Position numbers and translations under genes: made by a program
In this document: positions 977-19,416 of the stretch, piece by piece
Position numbering within the stretch: the first letter of the stretch is position 1
Layout of the letters: each line of letters begins with the position of its first letter
The notes under the pieces: model-generated
The model's input: the letters and a program-made list of their open reading frames with translations, nothing else
What the model was told of the DNA's origin: nothing
Databases searched by the model: none
Assembly (NCBI GenBank): GCA_018238545.1
Contig: JABCTC010000052.1
Span: 1 to 21,747, forward strand
Length of the DNA: 21,747 nucleotides
Source: Candidatus Heimdallarchaeota archaeon
Lineage (GTDB): Archaea; Asgardarchaeota; Heimdallarchaeia; Heimdallarchaeales; Heimdallarchaeaceae
Reading direction: 5' to 3'

Positions 977-2425
977 TTACAAATTCAATAATTTGTGAAA
1001 ATCTATCTTTTCATACTTCATTATATCTATCAGATTTTCAATATCATCTTTTTCAAGAGCTGCTCCAGGATATTTAGAAAGTAATTTTTCTACTCTTTCT
1101 TTTGTTCTTTGTCCAGTAGATTTTCTCCCCTTGTTTATCCATTCTTCATTTGTTGACCGATCAACAACAGTACTTGGCAAATAAAGTTCTTCTCTGAACC
1201 ACTTCAGTGTATGGTCGTGTGATAATAAATGTGTTTTCTTATCGAATTCCTTGAGTAAGTTCTTTGCTATTGGTTCATCTCTTTGTGTGATTCCTTTAAC
1301 GAATTTATAGGTCATTCCTGCGATTTCATTGTCGATTACCACTTTTTGAATACTTTGTGTTGATTCAAAGTTCATCATTCCTGCACCAGAAATCATATTA
1401 ACGCCTTTTATACCAGCCAAAAGAGATCCCATTCCTGTTTCAAACCCTGCTTGACTATCCAAAATTTTAGCATCTGACATTCCTAGATATGCATGTGTAG
1501 GTAGATTGAGATATTTACCAATTTCTACATACCCTAAATCCATGAGGATTGTATCAACCGAAGCTAAGTACATTGTCCCTTTTCTCATATCAAATGCTGC
1601 TGGTGAACCACCCCAAATTACTGGAGCACCAGGAGATACAATCTGAGTAATTACCAATCCTGCTAATGTTTCTGCTGCATGTTGAACGATCGAACCAAGT
1701 ATAGTCACTGGAGCAGTTGCACCAGTCATCGGCATAGAAACAAACTCAGATGGGATACCATATTTTGCACAATCAATTATGCTCTGACATGTTAAATCAC
1801 TCCATTTGAGTGGTGGAGATGGACATGCATCAAATATCGCCAAGGGTTTCCTCCTTAATTCTTCCTCACTTCCTCTTACAGTTACAAGCATATCCTTCAT
1901 CACTTCGAAAGATTCCTTGACGAATGTTCCTGTTACTATTGGTTTCTTTGAGTAAATCAATGCGATTAATAACCTATACCTATCACTAATCTTTTCAGGA
2001 ACATCTGAACAAGTTATAGCCGTACTTTGTGCGTGAATGTGTTCTAGTTGGTCAACTACTTTGGTAAAATCAACGAAATCTTTTGTAATTGCTGCTCTAA
2101 TCTCATTAGTTTCTTTGTCTAACACATTTAGTGCAGCTGAACCAGGATCAAAACAAATGTTATCTCCCCCGAGTTCTGATACTAAATCTCCTTCTCGATT
2201 GTAGAGGGAGATTGATTGAGGAGCTGTTTTAAGAGATTTCTTTACCAAGTCTCTTGGGATGAAAGCTTTCTGAGTCTCTGTATCTACATTGATACCTGCA
2301 TTCTGTAATATATCTACAGCTTCATTGTTTTCAACAAAGAATCCTATTTCTTCTAATATTTCCATTGCTTCTAGAACAACTTTCTCTTTCATATCTTCCT
2401 CAAGAATCTTGATAATTGGTCTCAT
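977..2425 (-). CDS. mttB: Trimethylamine methyltransferase (MttB) superfamily protein, non-pyrrolysine type (MtgB-like quaternary-amine:corrinoid methyltransferase)
   Basis: 482 aa with family motifs CPSPPLKW, MPMTGATAPVT, SDAKILDSQAGFE, GAGMMNFESTQSIQKVVIDNE. The residue before SDAK (Pyl in Methanosarcina MttB) is Met, and there is no in-frame TAG. Confidence 0.9.
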   Translation of the reverse strand: MRPIIKILEEDMKEKVVLEAMEILEEIGFFVENNEAVDILQNAGINVDTETQKAFIPRDLVKKSLKTAPQSISLYNREGDLVSELGGDNICFDPGSAALNVLDKETNEIRAAITKDFVDFTKVVDQLEHIHAQSTAITCSDVPEKISDRYRLLIALIYSKKPIVTGTFVKESFEVMKDMLVTVRGSEEELRRKPLAIFDACPSPPLKWSDLTCQSIIDCAKYGIPSEFVSMPMTGATAPVTILGSIVQHAAETLAGLVITQIVSPGAPVIWGGSPAAFDMRKGTMYLASVDTILMDLGYVEIGKYLNLPTHAYLGMSDAKILDSQAGFETGMGSLLAGIKGVNMISGAGMMNFESTQSIQKVVIDNEIAGMTYKFVKGITQRDEPIAKNLLKEFDKKTHLLSHDHTLKWFREELYLPSTVVDRSTNEEWINKGRKSTGQRTKERVEKLLSKYPGAALEKDDIENLIDIMKYEKIDFHKLLNL

Positions 2426-2515
2426 AATGTGTTCCTTTTCCGTAACTTCATACTTACTTATTCATAGAAGAATAAAAGTGTTATTTGAAGAACTTCAACT
2501 ATTTAAGATACTTTT

Positions 2516-3178
2516 TCAGTTGTCTTTTACTCTCCTATAAGCGCAATTAACCATATCACAGGTTTCGCATCCTCTTTCTCCTAATTCTTGATCAATTTCT
2601 TCCCCTATGTTAACTGCAAAAGAGACTGATTTAATTGGATGCATCATTTTTGAATCACTCAGCGAAACACCAATTTTCTCCGTACTTACTAAATTAAATA
2701 TCATTTCTTGACCTTTGTCTAATTCCCATTGACAATAACCAGGACTAAATCTAGAGGTAACTAATTTTTCCGCAATTTCATCCTTTAAATTCTCTAGAAT
2801 TATCCTATTTACGCATTCTGCGGTTTTTTCAGCTGCATGAGATGCTATAGCATCAATAATAACTCCCTTGGATAATTCACCTCTGGAAATGAATTGGGAA
2901 CCTCTTACTTCCAGTGCCTTCCCAATTGTACACACTGCTAAAACAGTTTTTTCTGATTTTTTGAAAAGGAAAGCTGGTTTTAGTGATGCACTCTCAAAGA
3001 CATCATAAATCCCCATGGGTTGAATTATCTCCAGTGATTCTATTGTCGTTTCACGAATTTGTTCAAGCAAAATGTTGGATATTTTTTTTTGTCTCTTCCG
3101 ATTTCCTTTACTACTGCTAAGCAGTCTCAGAATTTCCCTTTCATCAAGTTCAATTTGGATGTTATCAATTAGTTTCAC
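2516..3178 (-). CDS. Stand-alone B12-dependent methionine synthase activation-domain protein
   Basis: Motifs AVCTIG, IDAIASHAAE, RFSPGY, M(M)HPIKSVS and a C-terminal CETCDMVNC. The GTG start overlaps the upstream TGA (GTGA, 3175-3178). Confidence 0.85.
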   Translation of the reverse strand: MKLIDNIQIELDEREILRLLSSSKGNRKRQKKISNILLEQIRETTIESLEIIQPMGIYDVFESASLKPAFLFKKSEKTVLAVCTIGKALEVRGSQFISRGELSKGVIIDAIASHAAEKTAECVNRIILENLKDEIAEKLVTSRFSPGYCQWELDKGQEMIFNLVSTEKIGVSLSDSKMMHPIKSVSFAVNIGEEIDQELGERGCETCDMVNCAYRRVKDN

Positions 3179-4068
3179 TTTTTCTCCCTCTTAATTTGAT
3201 TTGATATCTCATTAATGAACTTAGGATTTGAACCACAACATCCTCCAACAATTGTAGCTCCATTTTTTATCATTTGTTGGATGTCACGAGTAAATTCATC
3301 AGGTTTTGATAAATAGATAGTTTTGCCTTCAACTAATTGAGGTTGTCCTGCATTAGGTTTTGCTATTATTGGGAGATCAGTGCTATTTGCAATTAGAGGA
3401 ATAAGATCTACCATCTCTTCACTACTTATAGTGCAATTTGCGCCTATTGCATCAGCACCTGCTTCTTCTAACACTTCTGAGCATTGCTCAATAGAGTTAC
3501 CCATAATTGTGAAGAACCCTCGCTTGGTTTTTTTGTAAGTTATCGATGCAAAAATAGGGGTGTTTGAAACTCTCTTGGCAGCTTTAACCGCTATCTCTGC
3601 TTCTTTGAGATCTACCATGGTTTCTATGAAAAAGAGGTCTACATCAGCTTCTGCAAGAATCGTTGTTTGCTCAATGAAACTTTCTATTAATTCCTGTTCA
3701 GTTATTGAACCAACGGGTGGTAGGAATTTTCCTGAAGGACCAATATCTCCTGCAATGTAGCCATTAGGGGGGCAAATCTCTTTAGCCAGCTCCACAGCTC
3801 TTGTATTATACTCTTTGACTTTATCTCCATGTCCATGAGCTTCTAATTTTAATCTTGAACCTCCGAAAGTGTTAGTAAGCACGATGTCTGAACCAGCACT
3901 AAAATATTCTAAGTGAATTTGTTTTATTTTTTCAGGTTGAGTTATGTTCCAGCTTTCTGGTGGTGTTCCAGGTTGTAACCCTAAATCTATAAGTCTTGAA
4001 CCCATCGCTCCATCTAGAATTACAAAACGTTCTGCAACTAATTCAAGAATTGGTTTCTTTAAGCTCAG
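3175..4068 (-). CDS. Homocysteine S-methyltransferase domain protein (split MetH-type)
   Basis: The conserved N-terminal ILDGAMGS motif begins upstream of the ORF-track start (4005). Also TNTFGG, GDIGPSG, IETM and Zn ligands GANC and GGCCG. Proposed CTG start at 4068, 6 nt after GGAGGT. Confidence 0.88.
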   Translation of the reverse strand: MSLKKPILELVAERFVILDGAMGSRLIDLGLQPGTPPESWNITQPEKIKQIHLEYFSAGSDIVLTNTFGGSRLKLEAHGHGDKVKEYNTRAVELAKEICPPNGYIAGDIGPSGKFLPPVGSITEQELIESFIEQTTILAEADVDLFFIETMVDLKEAEIAVKAAKRVSNTPIFASITYKKTKRGFFTIMGNSIEQCSEVLEEAGADAIGANCTISSEEMVDLIPLIANSTDLPIIAKPNAGQPQLVEGKTIYLSKPDEFTRDIQQMIKNGATIVGGCCGSNPKFINEISNQIKREKK

Positions 4069-4083
4069 ATGAATACCTCCTCG

Positions 4084-4716
4084 CTACTCCAATAGTTTTT
4101 TAGCTAGTTTAACTGCACTAACGGCATTTTCAGCGCTACCATCTGCTCCTATCTCCTCAACCCATTTTCTAGAAACAGGCGCGCCTCCAATAAGAATTTT
4201 GTATTTGTTTCTTATTTTTCTTTCTTTTAAGTTGTCAATCAATCTTTTTTGACCTACCATAGTCGTAGTAAGAAGTGCAGATATACAGATTAATTGTGCT
4301 CCTACTTCTTCTGCTTTATCAATGAATTTATCCACAGGGACGTCTGCTCCTAAATCAAATACCTCAAATCCTTCTGCAGACATAATAGCAGCAACTAGTG
4401 TCTTTCCGATGTCGTGAATGTCTCCTTCTATGGTCCCAATTACAACTTTGCCTAGATATCTATCTTCCTTATTTTCCATTATCTTGGGTTCAAGGATGGT
4501 CATCGCTGCTTTCATAGCTTCTGCGCTGCGCATAAGTTCAGGAAGAAAAAACTCTCCTTCTTCAAATAAATCTCCAGCTTCTCTTATAGCTTCTGAAAAT
4601 TGATCGATAACTAGGTTGATTTCAAGATTATCGTTAATTGCCTTACTTGCAAGAGATTCAGCTAGTGAGATGTTACCATTTAGTATAGCTTCTTTGTATT
4701 CTTTTTCTATGATCAA
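4084..4716 (-). CDS. Methyltransferase cognate corrinoid (B12-binding) protein, MttC/MtgC-like
   Basis: GDIHDIGK (DxHxxG cobalamin motif), DLGADVP, SALLTTTM, IGGAPV and cap-domain FFLPEL. Likely TTG start at 4716 after GGTGG (alternative 4728). Confidence 0.92.
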   Translation of the reverse strand: MIIEKEYKEAILNGNISLAESLASKAINDNLEINLVIDQFSEAIREAGDLFEEGEFFLPELMRSAEAMKAAMTILEPKIMENKEDRYLGKVVIGTIEGDIHDIGKTLVAAIMSAEGFEVFDLGADVPVDKFIDKAEEVGAQLICISALLTTTMVGQKRLIDNLKERKIRNKYKILIGGAPVSRKWVEEIGADGSAENAVSAVKLAKKLLE

Positions 4717-4814
4717 AATAACCACCAAGGAGTTACTAATATAGACAATCTACATGTTATTTAAATCATTTCTGAGGAAAATGCTAAAATAATTTCACAA
4801 AAAACTTGACTTTT

Positions 4815-8171: not shown

Positions 8172-9308
8172 TTGTCGGACGAACTTCATACCAAGCCTCT
8201 GGTCTTAGATAACGGAACTGGATATACTAAAATAGGTTTCGCTGGTGAAGATCAACCAAGAAGTGTTTTTCCAACTCTGATAGGTTATCCTAAAAACCCA
8301 ATAGTTATGCCTGATGTAGAAGCCTACTTCAGAGAATACTATATTGGTGAAGAAGCTATGAACTTACGAGGTGTTCTCAAACTTCAGTATCCAATGGAGC
8401 ATGGACAAGTTAAGGACTGGCAAGCAATGGAACGAATCTGGCATTATATTTATTATAATGACTTAAGAGTTAATCCAAATGAGCACCCAGTAATGTTAAC
8501 TGAACCACCTTTAAACGATAAAAAAAACAAGGAGAAGATGGCCGAGTTAATGTTTGAACAATTTAACGTTCCAGCCATGTATGTCTCCATGCAAGCAATA
8601 TTGTCTCTATATGCTTCTGGTAGGACAACTGGACTTGTTATAGATGCAGGTGATGGTGTAATTCATATCGTTCCAGTTTACGAAGGTTTTGCTATTTCTC
8701 ATGCGATACATCGTTCAGATATTGGTGGGCGAGATATTACTAACTATCTTAGAACCCTTTTGAAACAACGTGGGTATTCATTGACAACCAGTGCTGAGAA
8801 AGAAATCGTTAGAGATATCAAGGAACGACTCTGTTACATAGCTCTTGATCCAGAAAAAGAATTGAAGCTTGCAGAAAAAGTTTCAGGAATGGAGAAAGAT
8901 TATACCATGCCTGATGGCGAGGTTATCAACATAGGATCAGAACGTTTCATGGCTCCAGAACTGCTCTTTAGTCCAGGTGTTATTGGTTCTGAGGAAGAAC
9001 CGTTGGATGAACTAATTTATAGAATGGTACAGAATTGTGATGTAGATCTACGTCGAGATTTGTTTTCAAATATTGTACTTTCTGGTGGTTCAACAATGTT
9101 TCCAGGACTTAAAGAACGACTACATAAGGAATTAGTAGAGCTTGTTCCTGATACAACTGAAGTGAAGATAATCTCTCCTCCGGAACGAAGATACTCCGTA
9201 TGGATAGGCGGAAGTATTCTCAGTTCTCTTAAAACATTCAAGAAATTATGGGTAACAAAAAAAGAATATAAGGAGAATGGTCCTTCAGCTGTTTATCGTT
9301 GTATCTAA
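8172..9308 (+). CDS. Actin, Lokiactin/Asgard conserved-actin type
   Basis: 378 aa with DNGTG, GFAGEDQPRSVFP, YPMEHG, LTEPPLN, LSLYASGRTTG, DAGDG, TTSAEKEIVRDIKE, LSGGSTMFPG, PPERRYSVWIGGSIL and C-terminal RCI. Confidence 0.97.
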   Translation: MSDELHTKPLVLDNGTGYTKIGFAGEDQPRSVFPTLIGYPKNPIVMPDVEAYFREYYIGEEAMNLRGVLKLQYPMEHGQVKDWQAMERIWHYIYYNDLRVNPNEHPVMLTEPPLNDKKNKEKMAELMFEQFNVPAMYVSMQAILSLYASGRTTGLVIDAGDGVIHIVPVYEGFAISHAIHRSDIGGRDITNYLRTLLKQRGYSLTTSAEKEIVRDIKERLCYIALDPEKELKLAEKVSGMEKDYTMPDGEVINIGSERFMAPELLFSPGVIGSEEEPLDELIYRMVQNCDVDLRRDLFSNIVLSGGSTMFPGLKERLHKELVELVPDTTEVKIISPPERRYSVWIGGSILSSLKTFKKLWVTKKEYKENGPSAVYRCI

Positions 9309-13932: not shown

Positions 13933-15876
13933 ATGAGTTCAATTGAAGAAATCTGCGAAAAATACGCTGTTCAAAATGCTTTAGAGCATGGAGAAGCAAA
14001 AATTACCCCAGTAATGAGAATAATAATGGTTGCTCATCCTGAATTACGCAAGGATGTTAATAGTGTAAAAATTATCGCTCAACAGAAGATAGATTACATT
14101 AATTCTTTGGAAATCGCAGAAATACAAAAATTGGCTCAAACAAAGTATACTGAACTTCTAAAAGAAGTAACCGATGATAAAGAACCCGTAGAAGGTCTTA
14201 ACTTCATAAGAACAATTATAGAAGAGCACAATAGGACAGGTAGATTCGGTGGTAAAGTTCATACGAGATTTCCTCCTGAACCAAATGGTTGGTTACATAT
14301 AGGTCATGCCTGTTCAATCTTGATGAACCATAAAATTGCCATGGATTATGACGGAATTTTTAATTTCCGGTTTGATGATACAAATCCCATAACAGAAGAA
14401 GAATCATATGTTAATGCAATGATTGAGGATATTAAGTGGTTAGGAGTATACAAGGAATATGAAAATGGAAGTAATAATATCTTCTTTGGATCAGGTTATT
14501 TTGATCAGTTCTATGAATACGCTGAACAATTAGTTGAGAAAGGTTTAGCTTATGTTGATGATTCTAGTGCTGAAGAAATCAAGGAACAACGTGGATCAAT
14601 AACAGAACTCGGAACAGAAAGTCCTTACAGAACTAGAACAATTGAAGAGAACATTGATTTGTTCAAAAGAATGAAAAAATGTGAGTTCCCAAATGGATCT
14701 AAGGTTCTAAGAGCCAAATTAGACATGTCACATCCAAACCTACTCATGCGAGACCCTATCATTTATCGGATACTTCATACTCCCCATCATAATACAGGAG
14801 ATAAATGGTGCATCTATCCTATGTACGATTGGGCACATGGTTTAGAGGATTCTATAGAAGGAATCACACAATCTATCTGCACTTTAGAGTTTGAAGTTCA
14901 CAGACCATTATACGATTGGTTTCTAAACCAATTAACTGACGAGGAAGGTAAACCTATCTTTCATCCTCAGCAAATAGAATTTGCAAAAGTTAATCTTTCA
15001 CATACAGTTTTGGGTAAGCGTGTGATGATCCAATTAGTAAAAGATAAACATGTGAACGGTTGGGATGATCCTAGGATGCTAACAATTGCAGGACTAAGAA
15101 GAAGAGGGGTAACAGCCGAAGCGCTAAGAAAATTCATGGAGACAATAGGTGTATCAAAAAGAGATAAAATTATTGACCAATCTATACTAGATTACTGTAT
15201 CAGAGAAGATTTGAACAATAGATGTCCCAGAGTAATGAGTGTTCTTAAACCTCTAAAGGTTGTTATAACCAACTATTCAGCTGAAAAGAAGGAAGAGCTA
15301 GAAGTTCAAAATCATCCTACTATTAAGGAAATGGGGGCAAGAAAAATTATTTTTTCCAAAACCCTCTATATCGAACAAGATGATTTTATGGAAAATCCTC
15401 CTGAGGACTATTATAGACTTTCGCCTGGTGAAAAAGTTAGATTGAAAAACGCCTACATTATCAAATGTGAGAATGTTATCAAAGATGAAAAAACAGGTGA
15501 GATTAGTGAACTACATTGTTCTTATGAACCTAGACCAGCAGATAGTGCTTCAGATGATTCTAAAGTTAGAGGCACCATACACTGGATTTCAGCTGAAAAT
15601 AGTATAATCGCAGAAGTAAGATTAATTGATAGACTTTTCTTAAAAGAAAATCCAATGGAAACTGAAGAAGGAAAGGTTTTCGCAGATTACATAAACCCAC
15701 AATCACTGGAAATTACAGAAGCACTTGTTGAATCATTCCTGAAGGATGCTAAATTAGGATCAAGATTTCAGTTTGAGAGATTGGGCTATTTCTATCTAGA
15801 ACCAATTGATTCAACAGAAAATAATCTTGTCTTCAACAGAATTATCTCATTGAGAGATTCATGGTCAAAAAGATAG
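13933..15876 (+). CDS. glnS: Glutaminyl-tRNA synthetase with archaeal GluRS-type N-terminal domain
   Basis: NFIRTII, VHTRFPPEPNGWLHIGH, RFDDTNP, WCIYPMYD, SICTLEF, GWDDPRMLTIAGLRRRG, GTIHWIS, FQFERLGYF and FNRIISLRDSW, all typical of bacterial GlnRS. Confidence 0.92.
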   Translation: MSSIEEICEKYAVQNALEHGEAKITPVMRIIMVAHPELRKDVNSVKIIAQQKIDYINSLEIAEIQKLAQTKYTELLKEVTDDKEPVEGLNFIRTIIEEHNRTGRFGGKVHTRFPPEPNGWLHIGHACSILMNHKIAMDYDGIFNFRFDDTNPITEEESYVNAMIEDIKWLGVYKEYENGSNNIFFGSGYFDQFYEYAEQLVEKGLAYVDDSSAEEIKEQRGSITELGTESPYRTRTIEENIDLFKRMKKCEFPNGSKVLRAKLDMSHPNLLMRDPIIYRILHTPHHNTGDKWCIYPMYDWAHGLEDSIEGITQSICTLEFEVHRPLYDWFLNQLTDEEGKPIFHPQQIEFAKVNLSHTVLGKRVMIQLVKDKHVNGWDDPRMLTIAGLRRRGVTAEALRKFMETIGVSKRDKIIDQSILDYCIREDLNNRCPRVMSVLKPLKVVITNYSAEKKEELEVQNHPTIKEMGARKIIFSKTLYIEQDDFMENPPEDYYRLSPGEKVRLKNAYIIKCENVIKDEKTGEISELHCSYEPRPADSASDDSKVRGTIHWISAENSIIAEVRLIDRLFLKENPMETEEGKVFADYINPQSLEITEALVESFLKDAKLGSRFQFERLGYFYLEPIDSTENNLVFNRIISLRDSWSKR

Positions 15877-15960
15877 CACAAAAACTTGAGTTTCAAAAGA
15901 AAAATTTAAAACCATAATATGAAATGAACTTCTGAAGGTAACTACACCCTTTCAAAAAAT

Positions 15961-16065
15961 AGTCCCGTAGTGTAGCGGCAATCATTCCGGACTTTGAATC
16001 CGGCGACCGGGGTTCGAGAGAGTTCTTCCTGTTGGAAAATTCCGAATTTCCCCTCGGGACTACCA
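15961..16065 (+). tRNA. tRNA-Gln(UUG) with 30-nt intron at position 59/60 (intron 16019-16048)
   Basis: Acceptor AGTCCCG/CGGGACT, anticodon stem CCGGA/TCCGG, anticodon TTG at 15994-15996 and encoded CCA. A bulge-helix-bulge motif sits in the T-loop. Confidence 0.93.
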
Positions 16066-16076
16066 CTTTTCTTCTT

Positions 16077-16544
16077 CTAGCATTTTTTGCAGATATCTTC
16101 TTGCTGTACGGTTTTCTCCGTACAGGTTTCACACTTTTTGATTTCAAGTTTGCTTAAATCTATCTTTTCAATTTTTTCGATTAGTTCTTCTTTTGTCTTA
16201 TATTTCAATATCAATGTGTGGGGCCCTCCTTCGACCATTCTGGAAAGAGGAACATTTTTCTCGTCAAGAAGACAAATAACTGGAATTTCATGTTCATAAG
16301 CATACATTAATTCCATTCCTACACCATGTGAAGGTTCATTCACATCTGCAATGATGATAGAAGATTGTTTTAACCAATTAAGATCCCTATCAAAAATGAC
16401 TTTGGATGGTGCATCATCCATCTTTCCTGGAACAAATGGATGGTAACCCTGTGTTTGTACATATTTAACTAAATAATCTAATAGTGAGAAATCTAATTGT
16501 TGAGCTTTGATCATCGAACAAGCAATGTATGCATTCTTTCTCAT
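16077..16544 (-). CDS. Nucleoside 2-deoxyribosyltransferase / DNPH1(RCL)-like N-glycosidase with C-terminal Cys4 tail
   Basis: AYIACSM, IFDRDLNWL, ADVNEPSHGVGMELMYA, LSRMVEG, and tail CETC...CKKC. Confidence 0.8.
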   Translation of the reverse strand: MRKNAYIACSMIKAQQLDFSLLDYLVKYVQTQGYHPFVPGKMDDAPSKVIFDRDLNWLKQSSIIIADVNEPSHGVGMELMYAYEHEIPVICLLDEKNVPLSRMVEGGPHTLILKYKTKEELIEKIEKIDLSKLEIKKCETCTEKTVQQEDICKKC

Positions 16545-16599
16545 AATATATCTAACCTTTCACTTAATTTTGGGTAAAAAAGTGTTGAGCTGAAGCAAG

Positions 16600-18021
16600 T
16601 TATGCTGCTTCTTGTTCAGCCATTTTCTTAAGAACACTCAAAGCTCTTAGTGCAATTGTTGTTTCTTCAATATTTGCTCCCCAAAGACCACCTTTATCTT
16701 GAATTGCTAACAAATAAAGGGCAGCTTTTTTCAATATCAATGAATCAGCTGTTTCACTTGGAGCTAATGCTTGAATGACATATCCTGTTGTTCCAATATT
16801 TCCTGACCATGAACCTTCAATGAATTGAGTTCCTCCTATAGCTTGAGTGAATTGCTGTCTTTTTGTTGGAGCTCTTCGCATATCATGTAAAGCAAGCATC
16901 AGACGGGCAAACATTTCAATAGGTGTTTTACCTGTTTGTGATGTTGAGAATCTTGCGTATCCTCGTTTTACTGCAATTTCTATACAAGCTGAGAACAATT
17001 TTGCTAATCTATCTAGTAATTTTATGTTTCCTGTCACATCAGCAACATAACTCATTACTACATGTTGTGGAGTAGTTCTTGATCGTAAGTTTGATGTAAA
17101 TCTATTCAATTTGTTTATGAAATCCCATTCAGTGTCCTCAAAAATTGAATCTCTGAACTCTTCTATATCGCTCACTCTTTTATCAAATATTGTTGGGTCA
17201 AACAAGCTTACAGCATACATGACGTAAAATTGCTCATATGAAAGTTCTAGTGTTTCTAAGGTTTCGATTATTGCTGATAAGTTCTCTATAGGTTTTCGTA
17301 AGGTTACAGCTACTTTACCTTCATTGGTAGACATAATCCATTCTGTATCAAGATTATACCCAAGACTGTAGAAGAGTTCCAATACAGTGGCTGTTTCATA
17401 AACAGGATTAATGTCCCCCCAATACCCTTCTTCATTTATCCTTCTCTTCAAGGCATTGATTCCCTTGTCAAATGCTTTGTTAATTGGTAAATCTCCCAAT
17501 TTTTTTGACTTCAAGGTTTCTTCAAGTTGAGAAAATTGGTACTCTAGTCCAAATACTTCTGATTTTTCCACACGAGGATTGGAATAAAGGAAATAAGCCG
17601 TTTCTATTACACTTAATAAGAAAAATAGAACAACAAGAGATATGTTTAAACCACTTATTTCTACTAAAGCATATAGGCCTGGAATTGTTGCATATAATAC
17701 AATTACAACTAAAGAAATAAAACTCAGTATAGCTAGAAATTTGTTTGTATTTTCTCCAAAGATGTCTAAATGATAGTGAGCTTCAATATAGCTTAAAATA
17801 AGTGCAATTTCCATAAATATGCCTATTGGGAAGAAAATATATTTACCAGCAGGTGAGAAAGCATGCTGTGAACCCTCAGGTCGTGTCATTATGAAGAAAT
17901 ACACGAGAGTAATAGCGAAAATAGTCAGTCCAAATAATATCGTCTCAAAAATTCTTCTAATTCCAATTTTTTGACCAAATTTTAAAACTCTAGTATAAAT
18001 TCGATATGTCTCGTGGGTCAT
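16600..18021 (-). CDS. Membrane protein with C-terminal prenyltransferase/squalene-cyclase-repeat (alpha/alpha toroid) domain
   Basis: About 4 N-terminal TM helices and QW-like motifs NEEGYWG, QFIEGSWSG, QDKGGLWG. Start likely 18021 (alternative 18069). Confidence 0.65.
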   Translation of the reverse strand: MTHETYRIYTRVLKFGQKIGIRRIFETILFGLTIFAITLVYFFIMTRPEGSQHAFSPAGKYIFFPIGIFMEIALILSYIEAHYHLDIFGENTNKFLAILSFISLVVIVLYATIPGLYALVEISGLNISLVVLFFLLSVIETAYFLYSNPRVEKSEVFGLEYQFSQLEETLKSKKLGDLPINKAFDKGINALKRRINEEGYWGDINPVYETATVLELFYSLGYNLDTEWIMSTNEGKVAVTLRKPIENLSAIIETLETLELSYEQFYVMYAVSLFDPTIFDKRVSDIEEFRDSIFEDTEWDFINKLNRFTSNLRSRTTPQHVVMSYVADVTGNIKLLDRLAKLFSACIEIAVKRGYARFSTSQTGKTPIEMFARLMLALHDMRRAPTKRQQFTQAIGGTQFIEGSWSGNIGTTGYVIQALAPSETADSLILKKAALYLLAIQDKGGLWGANIEETTIALRALSVLKKMAEQEAA

Positions 18022-18075
18022 TAGAAAAAATATTCTTTTCAAGATATAAAAAAATTGCTGATAAAACAATGTAAA

Positions 18076-18417
18076 TTAAGCTATAATTAGACCTATAATA
18101 ATAACAATTAAGGCAATTACAGAAATAGTACCCATTATCCATACCCAATCTTTGAATAATTTTTCAACAGATGTAGGATCTTCTCTCTTTCTCATTCTTG
18201 TAGAAGCTGCTAATCCTGAGACAATCATGGGATATAATATGAAAACAATATTTACCACATTAAATTTACCACTTAGAAATACAGTGAGGAGTGACACTAT
18301 GAATAGTGCAAAACCAGTTATTGATATTAAATCCAATATTTTATCACTGAATTCAATCTTTCCATATTCTTTTTTGATGTTACTCAATGTGTCGCGTATA
18401 TTTTGTTTAATGCTCAT
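18076..18417 (-). CDS. Small 3-TM hypothetical membrane protein
   Basis: Three hydrophobic segments, co-oriented with its neighbours. Confidence 0.7.
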   Translation of the reverse strand: MSIKQNIRDTLSNIKKEYGKIEFSDKILDLISITGFALFIVSLLTVFLSGKFNVVNIVFILYPMIVSGLAASTRMRKREDPTSVEKLFKDWVWIMGTISVIALIVIIIGLIIA

Positions 18418-18491
18418 GATAGTTACCTTGATTTGGCTTTCGTTCTAATGACGGGAAGTCTATTTATAAGCATTTTTGTTTCAAATAAAAA

Positions 18492-18866
18492 TTACTTTTG
18501 TATTGATTCAATTCTAACTCCTGTAGAACTTTCAAATTTCTCAATCAACTTCATATTCTTGGTAATGGAACCAATATTTGCAACCTTAAGGTCAAATCTT
18601 GTATCGGTTAATAATATAATTACCGCTTTTGATCGTGGATCGAAAATTATGTCGCCTTTCTTACCTAGATTGACAGGCTTTTCAGCAGCATAATAGAAAG
18701 TCACGGGAATAAAGAGAAGATTCTCTCTCTTCAAAGCTCTCGAGTTTACTGGTAAGTTTCTGTTGAAGATTTCTGTTAAATGTGGACCTTTTACTCTAAT
18801 AAGCTCTCCTTCAGATTCTCCCTTATTTGGAAAAATGAGTTTGATTTTATACAATTCACCAGTCAT
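18492..18866 (-). CDS. Cyclophilin-like fold protein (UPF0288/DUF369-like)
   Basis: 124 aa with P(H)LT...LP, KKGDIIFDP...IILL and VANIGSI, the pattern of TM1367-like proteins. Confidence 0.6.
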   Translation of the reverse strand: MTGELYKIKLIFPNKGESEGELIRVKGPHLTEIFNRNLPVNSRALKRENLLFIPVTFYYAAEKPVNLGKKGDIIFDPRSKAVIILLTDTRFDLKVANIGSITKNMKLIEKFESSTGVRIESIQK

Positions 18867-19038
18867 TGCGTTTAGAAAAAACCACCAATATTTATATCTA
18901 TCTCATGAATGATAGATGTACCAAGACAAAAATCTCTATAGTTTCTCGGTATTGGCTGAATTTTCTTGAAAAATAACATATATTAATGGGTTTGTACATA
19001 TAAAACAAATACACATACCGTACTATTTACACTGAAGG

Positions 19039-19242
19039 GTGAAAGAAGTGTCAAAATATATTACTCCTAAAATGGATCCAAAGGAACTATTGTTAGTTTC
19101 AGAAGAGGAATCGGAGATAAAGTGTGGAAAATGCGGGAAACCGATGAAGTTTACCATATTTTACAAAGACAAAGAATCCCATGATTTTCTAGTTTGCAGT
19201 GACTGCGAAATTTACCTTCAAAGAGTAATTGTTGAAGATTGA
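19039..19242 (+). CDS. Small Zn-ribbon protein
   Basis: CGKCGKPM...CSDC. Start uncertain (GTG 19039 or 19048, ATG 19072). Confidence 0.65.
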   Translation: MKEVSKYITPKMDPKELLLVSEEESEIKCGKCGKPMKFTIFYKDKESHDFLVCSDCEIYLQRVIVED

Positions 19243-19340
19243 ATATTCTATTTTCCTTAGATTTTTACTATATTGTATATTACGTAAGAAGGGAAAAATT
19301 AAATAATTGTGCAAAAGAGTAGGGTTGTGGAAACACAAAT

Positions 19341-19416
19341 AGCTCCGTAGTCTAGCGGTCAAGGATACGGGACTCTGAATCCTGAGACGGGTGTTCAAAT
19401 CACCCCGGGGCTACCA
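19341..19416 (+). tRNA. tRNA-Gln(CUG)
   Basis: Acceptor AGCTCCG/CGGGGCT, anticodon CTG at 19375-19377, T-arm GGGTG-TTCAAAT-CACCC and encoded CCA. Confidence 0.95.

Follow-up and report, generated by a model that had tools for sequence, protein, structure and literature searches.

A bacterial-type glutaminyl-tRNA synthetase and its linked archaeal tRNA-Gln genes in Heimdallarchaeia

The glnS locus and its two tRNA-Gln genes

The DNA considered here (henceforth referred to as the window) is a contig of 21,747 nt from Candidatus Heimdallarchaeota archaeon, part of a 3.63 Mb genome (labelled G000; 92% complete, with an estimated contamination of 4%) that belongs to the Asgard family labelled f1. 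The subject of this study is glnS, which lies at 13933..15876 on the plus strand and encodes a glutaminyl-tRNA synthetase (GlnRS) of 647 aa with a bacterial-type core, and which is followed on the same strand by genes for both tRNA-Gln isoacceptors: the tRNA-Gln(UUG) gene begins exactly 84 nt past the glnS stop codon and the tRNA-Gln(CUG) gene is found 3.3 kb further on. A first-pass annotation, made from the sequence alone, had described this one-strand cluster, and the open reading frame and both spacings were confirmed here. The encoded protein scored 643 bits on TIGR00440, the NCBIfam glnS equivalog (cut-off 425.8 bits), and belongs to that equivalog, whereas two archaeal glutamyl-tRNA synthetase (GluRS) models gave it 356 and 337 bits, both under cut-off (356 versus 401.75 bits). 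Matches to PF00749 (tRNA-synt_1c; 301.8 bits), PF03950 (105.9 bits) and PF20974 (70.7 bits) define a layout of a class I Glu/Gln catalytic domain and two beta-barrel E/Q anticodon-binding domains. The HIGH motif occupies residues 122-125, and the KMSKS-type motif reads VLGKR in the translation, the E. coli GlnRS counterpart being VMSKR. When compared with proteins of known structure, the window enzyme scored 599 bits against the E. coli and P. aeruginosa enzymes, 401 against human and 362 against yeast GlnRS.

The N-terminal domain of about 85 residues (13933..14187, plus strand) is of a different kind. No Pfam family matched in this part of the protein and bacterial homologues align with the window GlnRS only from about residue 75-90 on; by BLASTP, residues 1-85 show homology to the N-terminal part of the GluRS from the same genome (35% identity over 80 aa, E 5e-10), and the GluRS of M. 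thermautotrophicus (3aii) aligns from residue 3. The extra domain would therefore, by this homology, derive from archaeal GluRS. Neither of the eukaryotic GlnRS N-terminal domains, PF04558 and PF04557, was found in the window enzyme, PF04558 being present in 10/10 eukaryote-type representatives (a reference set of n=10 that was picked by PF04558).

Both tRNA-Gln genes have the features of archaeal tRNA-Gln, namely A1:U72, G2:C71, G10, A73, a YUG anticodon and an encoded CCA. G37 (m1G37), which is typical of archaeal tRNA-Gln although not defining, is absent: the anticodon arm of both genes reads GGA-CUYUGAA-UCC, with A37 and A38, and is one that we take to be identical to the arm of human tRNA-Gln(CUG). 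The loop with A37, the A1:U72 pair and A73 had all been reported in the first-pass annotation and were read again from the sequence. The CUG gene (19341..19416, plus strand; loop CUCUGAA) was called by ARAGORN and scored 61.6 bits with the Rfam tRNA model. In marked contrast, the UUG gene was missed by ARAGORN and obtained only 25.9 bits with Rfam, because a 30-nt insert splits its T-loop. Its first exon (15961..16018, plus strand) covers positions 1-59 and contains the loop CUUUGAA, as established by sequence reading, a partial Rfam match, a pattern scan and identity to the gene of a relative (G035); the insert occupies 16019..16048, and the second exon (16049..16065), read from the sequence, covers positions 60-73 and the encoded CCA.

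The insert, overlooked in the first-pass annotation, was confirmed by its predicted fold and by an intronless allele to be a canonical bulge-helix-bulge intron. The fold consists of the T-stem (GGGG:CCCC), a 4-bp helix (UUCG:CGAA) and the 3-nt bulges AGA and UUU, and with cuts predicted behind the second nucleotide of each bulge the intron falls at position 59/60. At this locus G035 has an intronless gene (L127), called by ARAGORN as tRNA-Gln(UUG), and the tRNA expected after splicing in the window matches it with 100% identity. Four relatives (G024, G019, G033 and G017; loci L097, L099, L107 and L108) have a T-loop intron of unrelated sequence at the same 59/60 site of the glnS-linked UUG gene; the presence of the intron thus varies among strains, since G035 and others do not have it and several relatives have a different one. 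A 4-bp helix with two 3-nt bulges on the T-stem and variation among strains are shared with other non-canonical archaeal tRNA introns at 59/60, and nothing about the present one is unusual. The window intron has no homologue elsewhere in the G000 genome, and intron transposition was set aside. Where the T-stem of the spliced UUG tRNA (window 15961-16065) begins, at its base, there is a mismatch, C49·U65, that also occurs in G035, while other relatives have a normal pair.

No further tRNA-Gln, including a set of the G37 type, was found in the 92%-complete G000 genome by intron-mode ARAGORN, a genome-wide Rfam tRNA search, BLAST with each of the two window tRNAs and a pattern scan. Two short BLAST matches on contigs C9 and C62 were not tRNAs, and the "tRNA-Stop" and "tRNA-SeC" calls made by ARAGORN were artefacts of the intron mode. 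In three relatives (G018, G033 and G026; L101:1168-1242, L107:1132-1206 and L111:1165-1239) a conserved tRNA-Gln-like gene is situated between the glnS-linked UUG and CUG genes; it has A1:U72, A73, an encoded CCA and an anticodon loop of apparently 8 nt (GUUUAGGC), is reported by ARAGORN as "tRNA-???" with a 2-nt anticodon, and may be a pseudogene or else a tRNA that reads four bases or a stop codon. Another relative (G025, L006:13615-13690) has, 3.2 kb past the CUG tRNA gene, a tRNA with loop AUUUAUU whose anticodon, UUA, would pair with the stop codon UAA and whose body resembles the f1 tRNA-Gln(CUG); the window contig ends before the equivalent position.

Distribution of GlnRS among Asgard archaea

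According to reviews published in 2022 (PMC9499178, PMC8762117), GlnRS is absent from all archaea, the reason given being that archaeal tRNA-Gln, with A1:U72 and A73, is unusable by bacterial or eukaryotic GlnRS. One preprint describes GlnRS beside cox genes in Hodarchaeales and Kariarchaeaceae, and our literature search found no study on the tRNAs, the chimeric domain or the GatE paralogues that accompany GlnRS in Heimdallarchaeia. Across 399 Asgard species genomes from 33 families, GlnRS above the TIGR00440 cut-off was present in 41, all of them in three families of Heimdallarchaeia: f1, the family of the window, which includes genera g1-g5 (g1 being the window's own genus), f5 and f7. By family, GlnRS was found in 20/29 genomes of f1, 12/22 of f5 and 10/12 of f7 (the last count made at E ≤ 1e-100 and including two contig-edge fragments that fall under the cut-off). 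It was not found in f2-f4, the other families of the window's order, nor in the roughly 310 remaining Asgard genomes. The GluRS-type N-terminal domain is present in the f1 and f7 enzymes (about 641-655 aa) and missing from the f5 enzymes (about 565-600 aa), as it is from bacterial GlnRS.

Conservation of the synteny between glnS and tRNA-Gln, a check proposed in the first-pass annotation, was borne out in f1, where 16 genomes of genera g1, g2 and g3 have tRNA-Gln(UUG) about 80-260 nt after glnS (1.7 kb in G012), and the CUG gene lies 1-4 kb beyond the UUG gene at the linked loci. By our own arithmetic, the chance that two randomly placed genes would both fall ≤3.6 kb downstream of glnS in a genome of 3.63 Mb is about 1e-6. 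No linkage between glnS and tRNA-Gln was found in f1 genera g4 and g5, nor in f7. In f5 a UUG-CUG pair of tRNA genes is convergent to glnS, an arrangement independent of that in f1.

The GatDE paralogue and base 37 of tRNA-Gln

Besides GlnRS, G000 has genes for an archaeal GluRS and for GatD and GatE, which lie side by side (C9:6446-9695; L001, L002); because a GatDE-type enzyme is retained beside GlnRS, both routes to Gln-tRNA are encoded, the direct route and the indirect route of GluRS and the GatDE amidotransferase. Scored with TIGR00134, on which canonical GatE copies obtain 530-650 bits and divergent copies 335-440 bits, the GatE of G000 reached 396 bits, which is above the model cut-off. 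It is 48-54% identical to divergent copies from f7, f2 and f5 and 36-39% identical to canonical ones and, since it is closer to the former, it is an old paralogue and not a decaying orthologue of canonical GatE. All 30 f1 genomes have divergent GatE only (375-410 bits), as does one part of f5. Canonical GatE occurs in f3, f4 and part of f5; in f2 (G010) and f7 it stands alongside a divergent copy; and in f6 a canonical score was obtained in G078 (577 bits) and just a 266-bit fragment in G077. Two f7 contigs (G083:C54 and G080:C20) carry glnS and divergent GatE 20-50 kb apart. The divergent copies (L220-L226 among them) have a mean identity of 51% to each other and 34% to canonical GatE and keep 79-91 of the 104 residues that are invariant in canonical GatE; being well conserved, with most of these residues kept, the GatDE paralogue is probably an active enzyme. 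A role for it in the Asn route is not needed, as AsnRS is present in G000 and GatB was not found there.

The first-pass annotation held that archaeal tRNA-Gln has G37, and this is true of most Asgard families (f2-f4, f6, f8-f11, f24, f26, f28, f30, f31 and f33) but not of all, A37 being found in f19-f21. These assignments come from a pattern spanning tRNA-Gln positions 32-58 that was run across the genomes, for which a reversed-pattern control gave ~0.05 matches per genome. Within Heimdallarchaeia, the GlnRS-less families f2, f3 and f6 have G37 only and f4, also GlnRS-less, has G37 except in the UUG tRNA of G044 and G050, where it is A37. In f1 the UUG tRNA has A37 in every gene examined, including 16/16 that are adjacent to glnS, whereas for the CUG tRNA eight genomes have A37 and six genomes of the window's own genus (about half of g1), with GlnRS and no canonical GatE, have G37; in f7 it is the CUG gene that has A37 and the UUG gene that mostly has G37. 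The glnS-linked pair of f5 combines A37 with G73. An unlinked f5 UUG copy with G37 and A73 occurs in G063, G065, G066 and G073, all of which retain canonical GatE, while f5 genomes with A37/G73 tRNAs only have divergent GatE only; G73 was found also in GlnRS-less f4. Outside Heimdallarchaeia, f20 has GlnRS in 0/135 genomes and A37 tRNA-Gln in 41/135 (among f20 genomes ≥90% complete, A37 in about 32/89 and G37 in 1/89); these A37 genes were verified as true tRNA-Gln, and canonical GatE scores 600-625 bits there. A37 was also seen in 4/4 genomes of f21 and in some f19 genomes. The one f20 genome with G37 tRNA-Gln (G234) gave six matches, all near the ends of its six small contigs concerned, which are likely to be contamination or an unplaced tRNA array.

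The bodies of these tRNAs are archaeal and lineage-specific, and the changes at position 37 therefore arose repeatedly rather than by import. For the f5 glnS-linked tRNAs, whose nearest relatives are Asgard tRNA-Gln at 79-81% identity, a bacterial origin was ruled out by that relationship together with A1:U72. Additional inserts were seen in f5: the unlinked native UUG tRNA (G37, A73; L159, L161, L164 and L168 in G063, G064, G066 and G073) has an intron in or near the T-loop, and the glnS-linked UUG gene of G071 (L093) has an insert in the variable/T-arm region.

From the genes at the locus and in the rest of the genome we consider direct glutaminylation by GlnRS to be the most likely function, with a probability of roughly 0.6. 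A Heimdallarchaeial genome would have acquired a bacterial-type GlnRS, which in f1 and f7 bears the GluRS-derived domain; both tRNA-Gln are native archaeal molecules, that from the UUG gene having first to be spliced by the archaeal endonuclease at its T-loop bulge-helix-bulge intron; GlnRS would charge both with glutamine directly, probably as the main route; and the whole of f1 has lost the canonical GatE of the indirect route and kept only the conserved GatDE paralogue. Canonical GatE is missing only in GlnRS-bearing lineages, f1 and one part of f5, which fits a direct route replacing the indirect one. Several points weigh against this view. With A73, and with A38 in place of U38, the window tRNAs depart from the identity set of E. 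coli GlnRS. With 79-91 of 104 invariant residues in its GatDE paralogue, the indirect route may remain functional and might even be the principal route. Finally, A37 goes with GlnRS within Heimdallarchaeia (f1, f5 and f7 against f2, f3, f4 and f6), and to call it merely permissive, as we do below, may understate its part.

From the cluster and its tRNAs the first-pass annotation had drawn a wider proposal, that of a complete direct-glutaminylation module with co-adapted tRNAs. Extended to our data, A37 (and G73 in f5) would be a specific co-adaptation, with A37 tRNAs for GlnRS and G37 tRNAs for non-discriminating GluRS (ND-GluRS) and GatDE, and the Heimdallarchaeia families would stand at successive stages of a switch. 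A true GlnRS, the linkage and the presence of A37 in all three GlnRS families uphold the proposal in part; the occurrence of A37 in GlnRS-less f20 does not fit. A37 is one of the identity elements of E. coli GlnRS, all 16 glnS-adjacent UUG tRNAs examined in f1 have it, nothing but G37 is seen in f2, f3 and f6 (and in f4 but for two genomes), and in f5 the linked A37/G73 pair is set against an unlinked G37/A73 copy that goes with canonical GatE, with A37/G73-only genomes having divergent GatE only. As the lineage-specific tRNA bodies indicate that the G-to-A change arose more than once, this apparent repetition is the best evidence for the idea. The first-pass annotation had suggested tabulating base 37 in genomes with and without glnS, and had reasoned that A37 being equally common in lineages lacking GlnRS would count against co-adaptation; the outcome was divided, with base 37 tracking GlnRS within Heimdallarchaeia and A37 occurring in the absence of GlnRS in f20, f21 and f19. 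In f20 and f21, where canonical GatE is present, A37 is the rule; the CUG tRNA has G37 in six g1 genomes that carry GlnRS and lack canonical GatE; the f7 UUG tRNA is mostly G37; G044 and G050 in f4 have A37 without GlnRS; G73 is also present in GlnRS-less f4; and the comparison amounts to only about three independent contrasts. We therefore regard specific co-adaptation as a tentative proposal that falls well short of even odds. A37 can go together with the indirect route and also occurs in lineages that lack GlnRS; because it is the norm in GlnRS-less f20 with canonical GatE and varies within the window's genus, it is no signature of a pathway switch. Judged from these sequences, it agrees with the preference of bacterial GlnRS, may help the Heimdall GlnRS and would be at most a permissive or fine-tuning feature, and co-adaptation of tRNA-Gln with GlnRS is possible.

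A staged replacement would bring these observations together: Heimdallarchaeia would be at different stages of swapping the indirect route for an acquired GlnRS, the graft of the N-terminal domain would be an adaptation to the host, the linked tRNAs would have been retuned (A37, and G73 in f5), and the unlinked G37/A73 copies would serve GluRS and GatDE. We hold this scenario, too, to be doubtful as a whole. If it is true, some cells run two separate sets of tRNA-Gln, and f1 would be the end stage, with canonical GatE lost.

We also considered whether GlnRS could be accessory or redundant, with ND-GluRS and the GatDE paralogue making most of the Gln-tRNA-Gln and GlnRS acting on a single isoacceptor, under certain conditions or in some different capacity. 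The archaeal GluRS and the adjacent GatD/GatE pair are intact, about 85% of the positions that do not vary in canonical GatE are unchanged in the paralogue, whose copies have a mean identity of 51%, and both tRNAs keep A1:U72, which is the GatDE determinant. The pattern of gene loss and retention points the other way, however: canonical GatE was lost only in lineages with GlnRS (f1 and one part of f5), glnS is intact, conserved in 41 genomes and linked to tRNA genes, and in f7 and G010 canonical GatE is accompanied by the paralogue, suggesting that the latter has a distinct role. A merely accessory GlnRS is in our view unlikely, at about one chance in a handful.

Origin of the enzyme and its meaning for Heimdallarchaeia

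Close homologues of the window GlnRS are labelled Heimdallarchaeota or Heimdallarchaeaceae, and its closest non-Asgard homologues are bacterial, with 52-61% identity and from many phyla. The eukaryote-type GlnRS (n=10) form a separate clade with 100% support and no Heimdall sequence inside, and sequence comparison firmly indicates that the window enzyme is bacterial-type and not eukaryote-like. In quick mixture-model trees f1/f7 and f5 formed two separate clades among bacteria, suggesting two independent acquisitions; two acquisitions are not claimable, however, because a tree in which all Heimdall GlnRS were constrained to one clade, beside Bacteroidota, Chlorobiota and Ignavibacteriota, was equally likely (0.52 versus 0.48 in the approximately unbiased (AU) test).

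A further reading takes the f1/f7 enzyme to be an old archaeal GlnRS with a GluRS-type N-terminal domain, basal to bacterial GlnRS and passed from Heimdallarchaeia to bacteria. A full LG+F+G4 search rooted on the eukaryote-type sequences made f1/f7 the sister group of f5 together with all bacterial sequences, a tree rooted with GluRS also put f1/f7 close to the base, and the N-terminal domain shares homology with archaeal GluRS. The basal split is weak (86 in the Shimodaira-Hasegawa-like approximate likelihood ratio test, SH-aLRT, and 43 by ultrafast bootstrap, UFBoot), a C20 mixture tree of 68 taxa nests f1/f7 within bacteria, and the equally likely constrained tree nests a single Heimdall clade beside the three bacterial phyla named above. 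Moreover, the enzyme is found in just 3 of 33 Asgard families and in none of the sister families f2-f4, and the f1 enzyme is about as similar to bacterial sequences (52-58%) as to the f5 type (51-54%). An old archaeal origin therefore appears quite improbable.

An assembly or binning error that put a contig with bacterial glnS into an archaeal bin, as the 4% estimated contamination and the bacterial-type enzyme core might suggest, is effectively refuted and retains next to no probability, for glnS shares its contig with genes for an actin homologue (445 bits), a RIO kinase and archaeal tRNAs, one with a bulge-helix-bulge intron, the GC content of the contig (34.7%) is near that of the genome (34.0%), the same locus recurs in at least 16 related genomes, and glnS is present in the single-contig genomes G015 and G016. 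The actin homologue (window 8172-9308, plus strand; 378 aa, Pfam Actin) is a gene expected in an Asgard archaeon. On the minus strand, window 977-4728 holds a corrinoid methyltransferase cluster that consists of an MttB-family protein, a methionine-synthase activation-domain protein, a homocysteine S-methyltransferase-like protein and a B12-binding protein. An Rfam PYLIS_3 match at 1381-1480 was rejected as a sign of pyrrolysine, as the MttB-like reading frame has no in-frame stop and the match probably reflects sequence homology only.

Among known systems, the window enzyme shares with bacterial GlnRS (E. coli; 1GTR, 1QTQ) the domain layout and the level of similarity given above, and the window tRNAs share G2:C71, G10, the YUG anticodon and A37 with bacterial tRNA-Gln; the system differs in its archaeal host, the GluRS-type N-terminal domain of about 85 residues, the intron in the UUG gene and the tRNA bases A1:U72, A73 and A38, where E. 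coli has U1:A72, G73 and U38. The archaeal indirect route (M. thermautotrophicus; 3AII, 2D6F) is matched by the archaeal GluRS, the adjacent GatD/GatE, A1:U72 and A73, but not by the divergent GatE (396 versus 530-650 bits; 36-39% identity to canonical copies), the absence of canonical GatE from f1 or the presence of GlnRS. With eukaryotic GlnRS (human 4R3Z, yeast 4H3S) the system would have direct glutaminylation in common, within the archaeal-eukaryotic lineage, as well as A37 in tRNA-Gln; in contrast, the window enzyme has no PF04558 or PF04557, scores 401 bits against the human enzyme and falls outside the eukaryote-type clade. In some bacteria, for instance Deinococcus radiodurans with its GlnRS-YqeY (2HZ7), GlnRS also stands beside a Gat-type amidotransferase, and an appended tRNA-binding domain would in both systems aid an acquired or odd GlnRS; however, the amidotransferase of those bacteria serves Asn, whereas G000 has AsnRS and no GatB, and the domain appended there is a C-terminal YqeY domain, whereas that of the window enzyme is N-terminal and of the GluRS type.

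The locus had been offered in the first-pass annotation as a possible snapshot of the switch from indirect to direct glutaminylation that also took place in the eukaryotic lineage. Because the Heimdall GlnRS is bacterial-type, it gives no direct view of that switch and runs parallel to it; the eukaryotic switch is not explained by the Heimdall GlnRS, and A37 alone is no switch marker. What the results do reveal is that, contrary to the reviews, a bacterial-type GlnRS is fixed in three families of Heimdallarchaeia, which are among the closest archaeal relatives of eukaryotes, that two of the three GlnRS families (f1 and f7) have a grafted GluRS domain, and that canonical GatE was lost in two lineages. 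What a switch from the indirect to the direct route requires is thereby opened to direct testing, for which a small number of recombinant proteins and tRNA transcripts would be enough.

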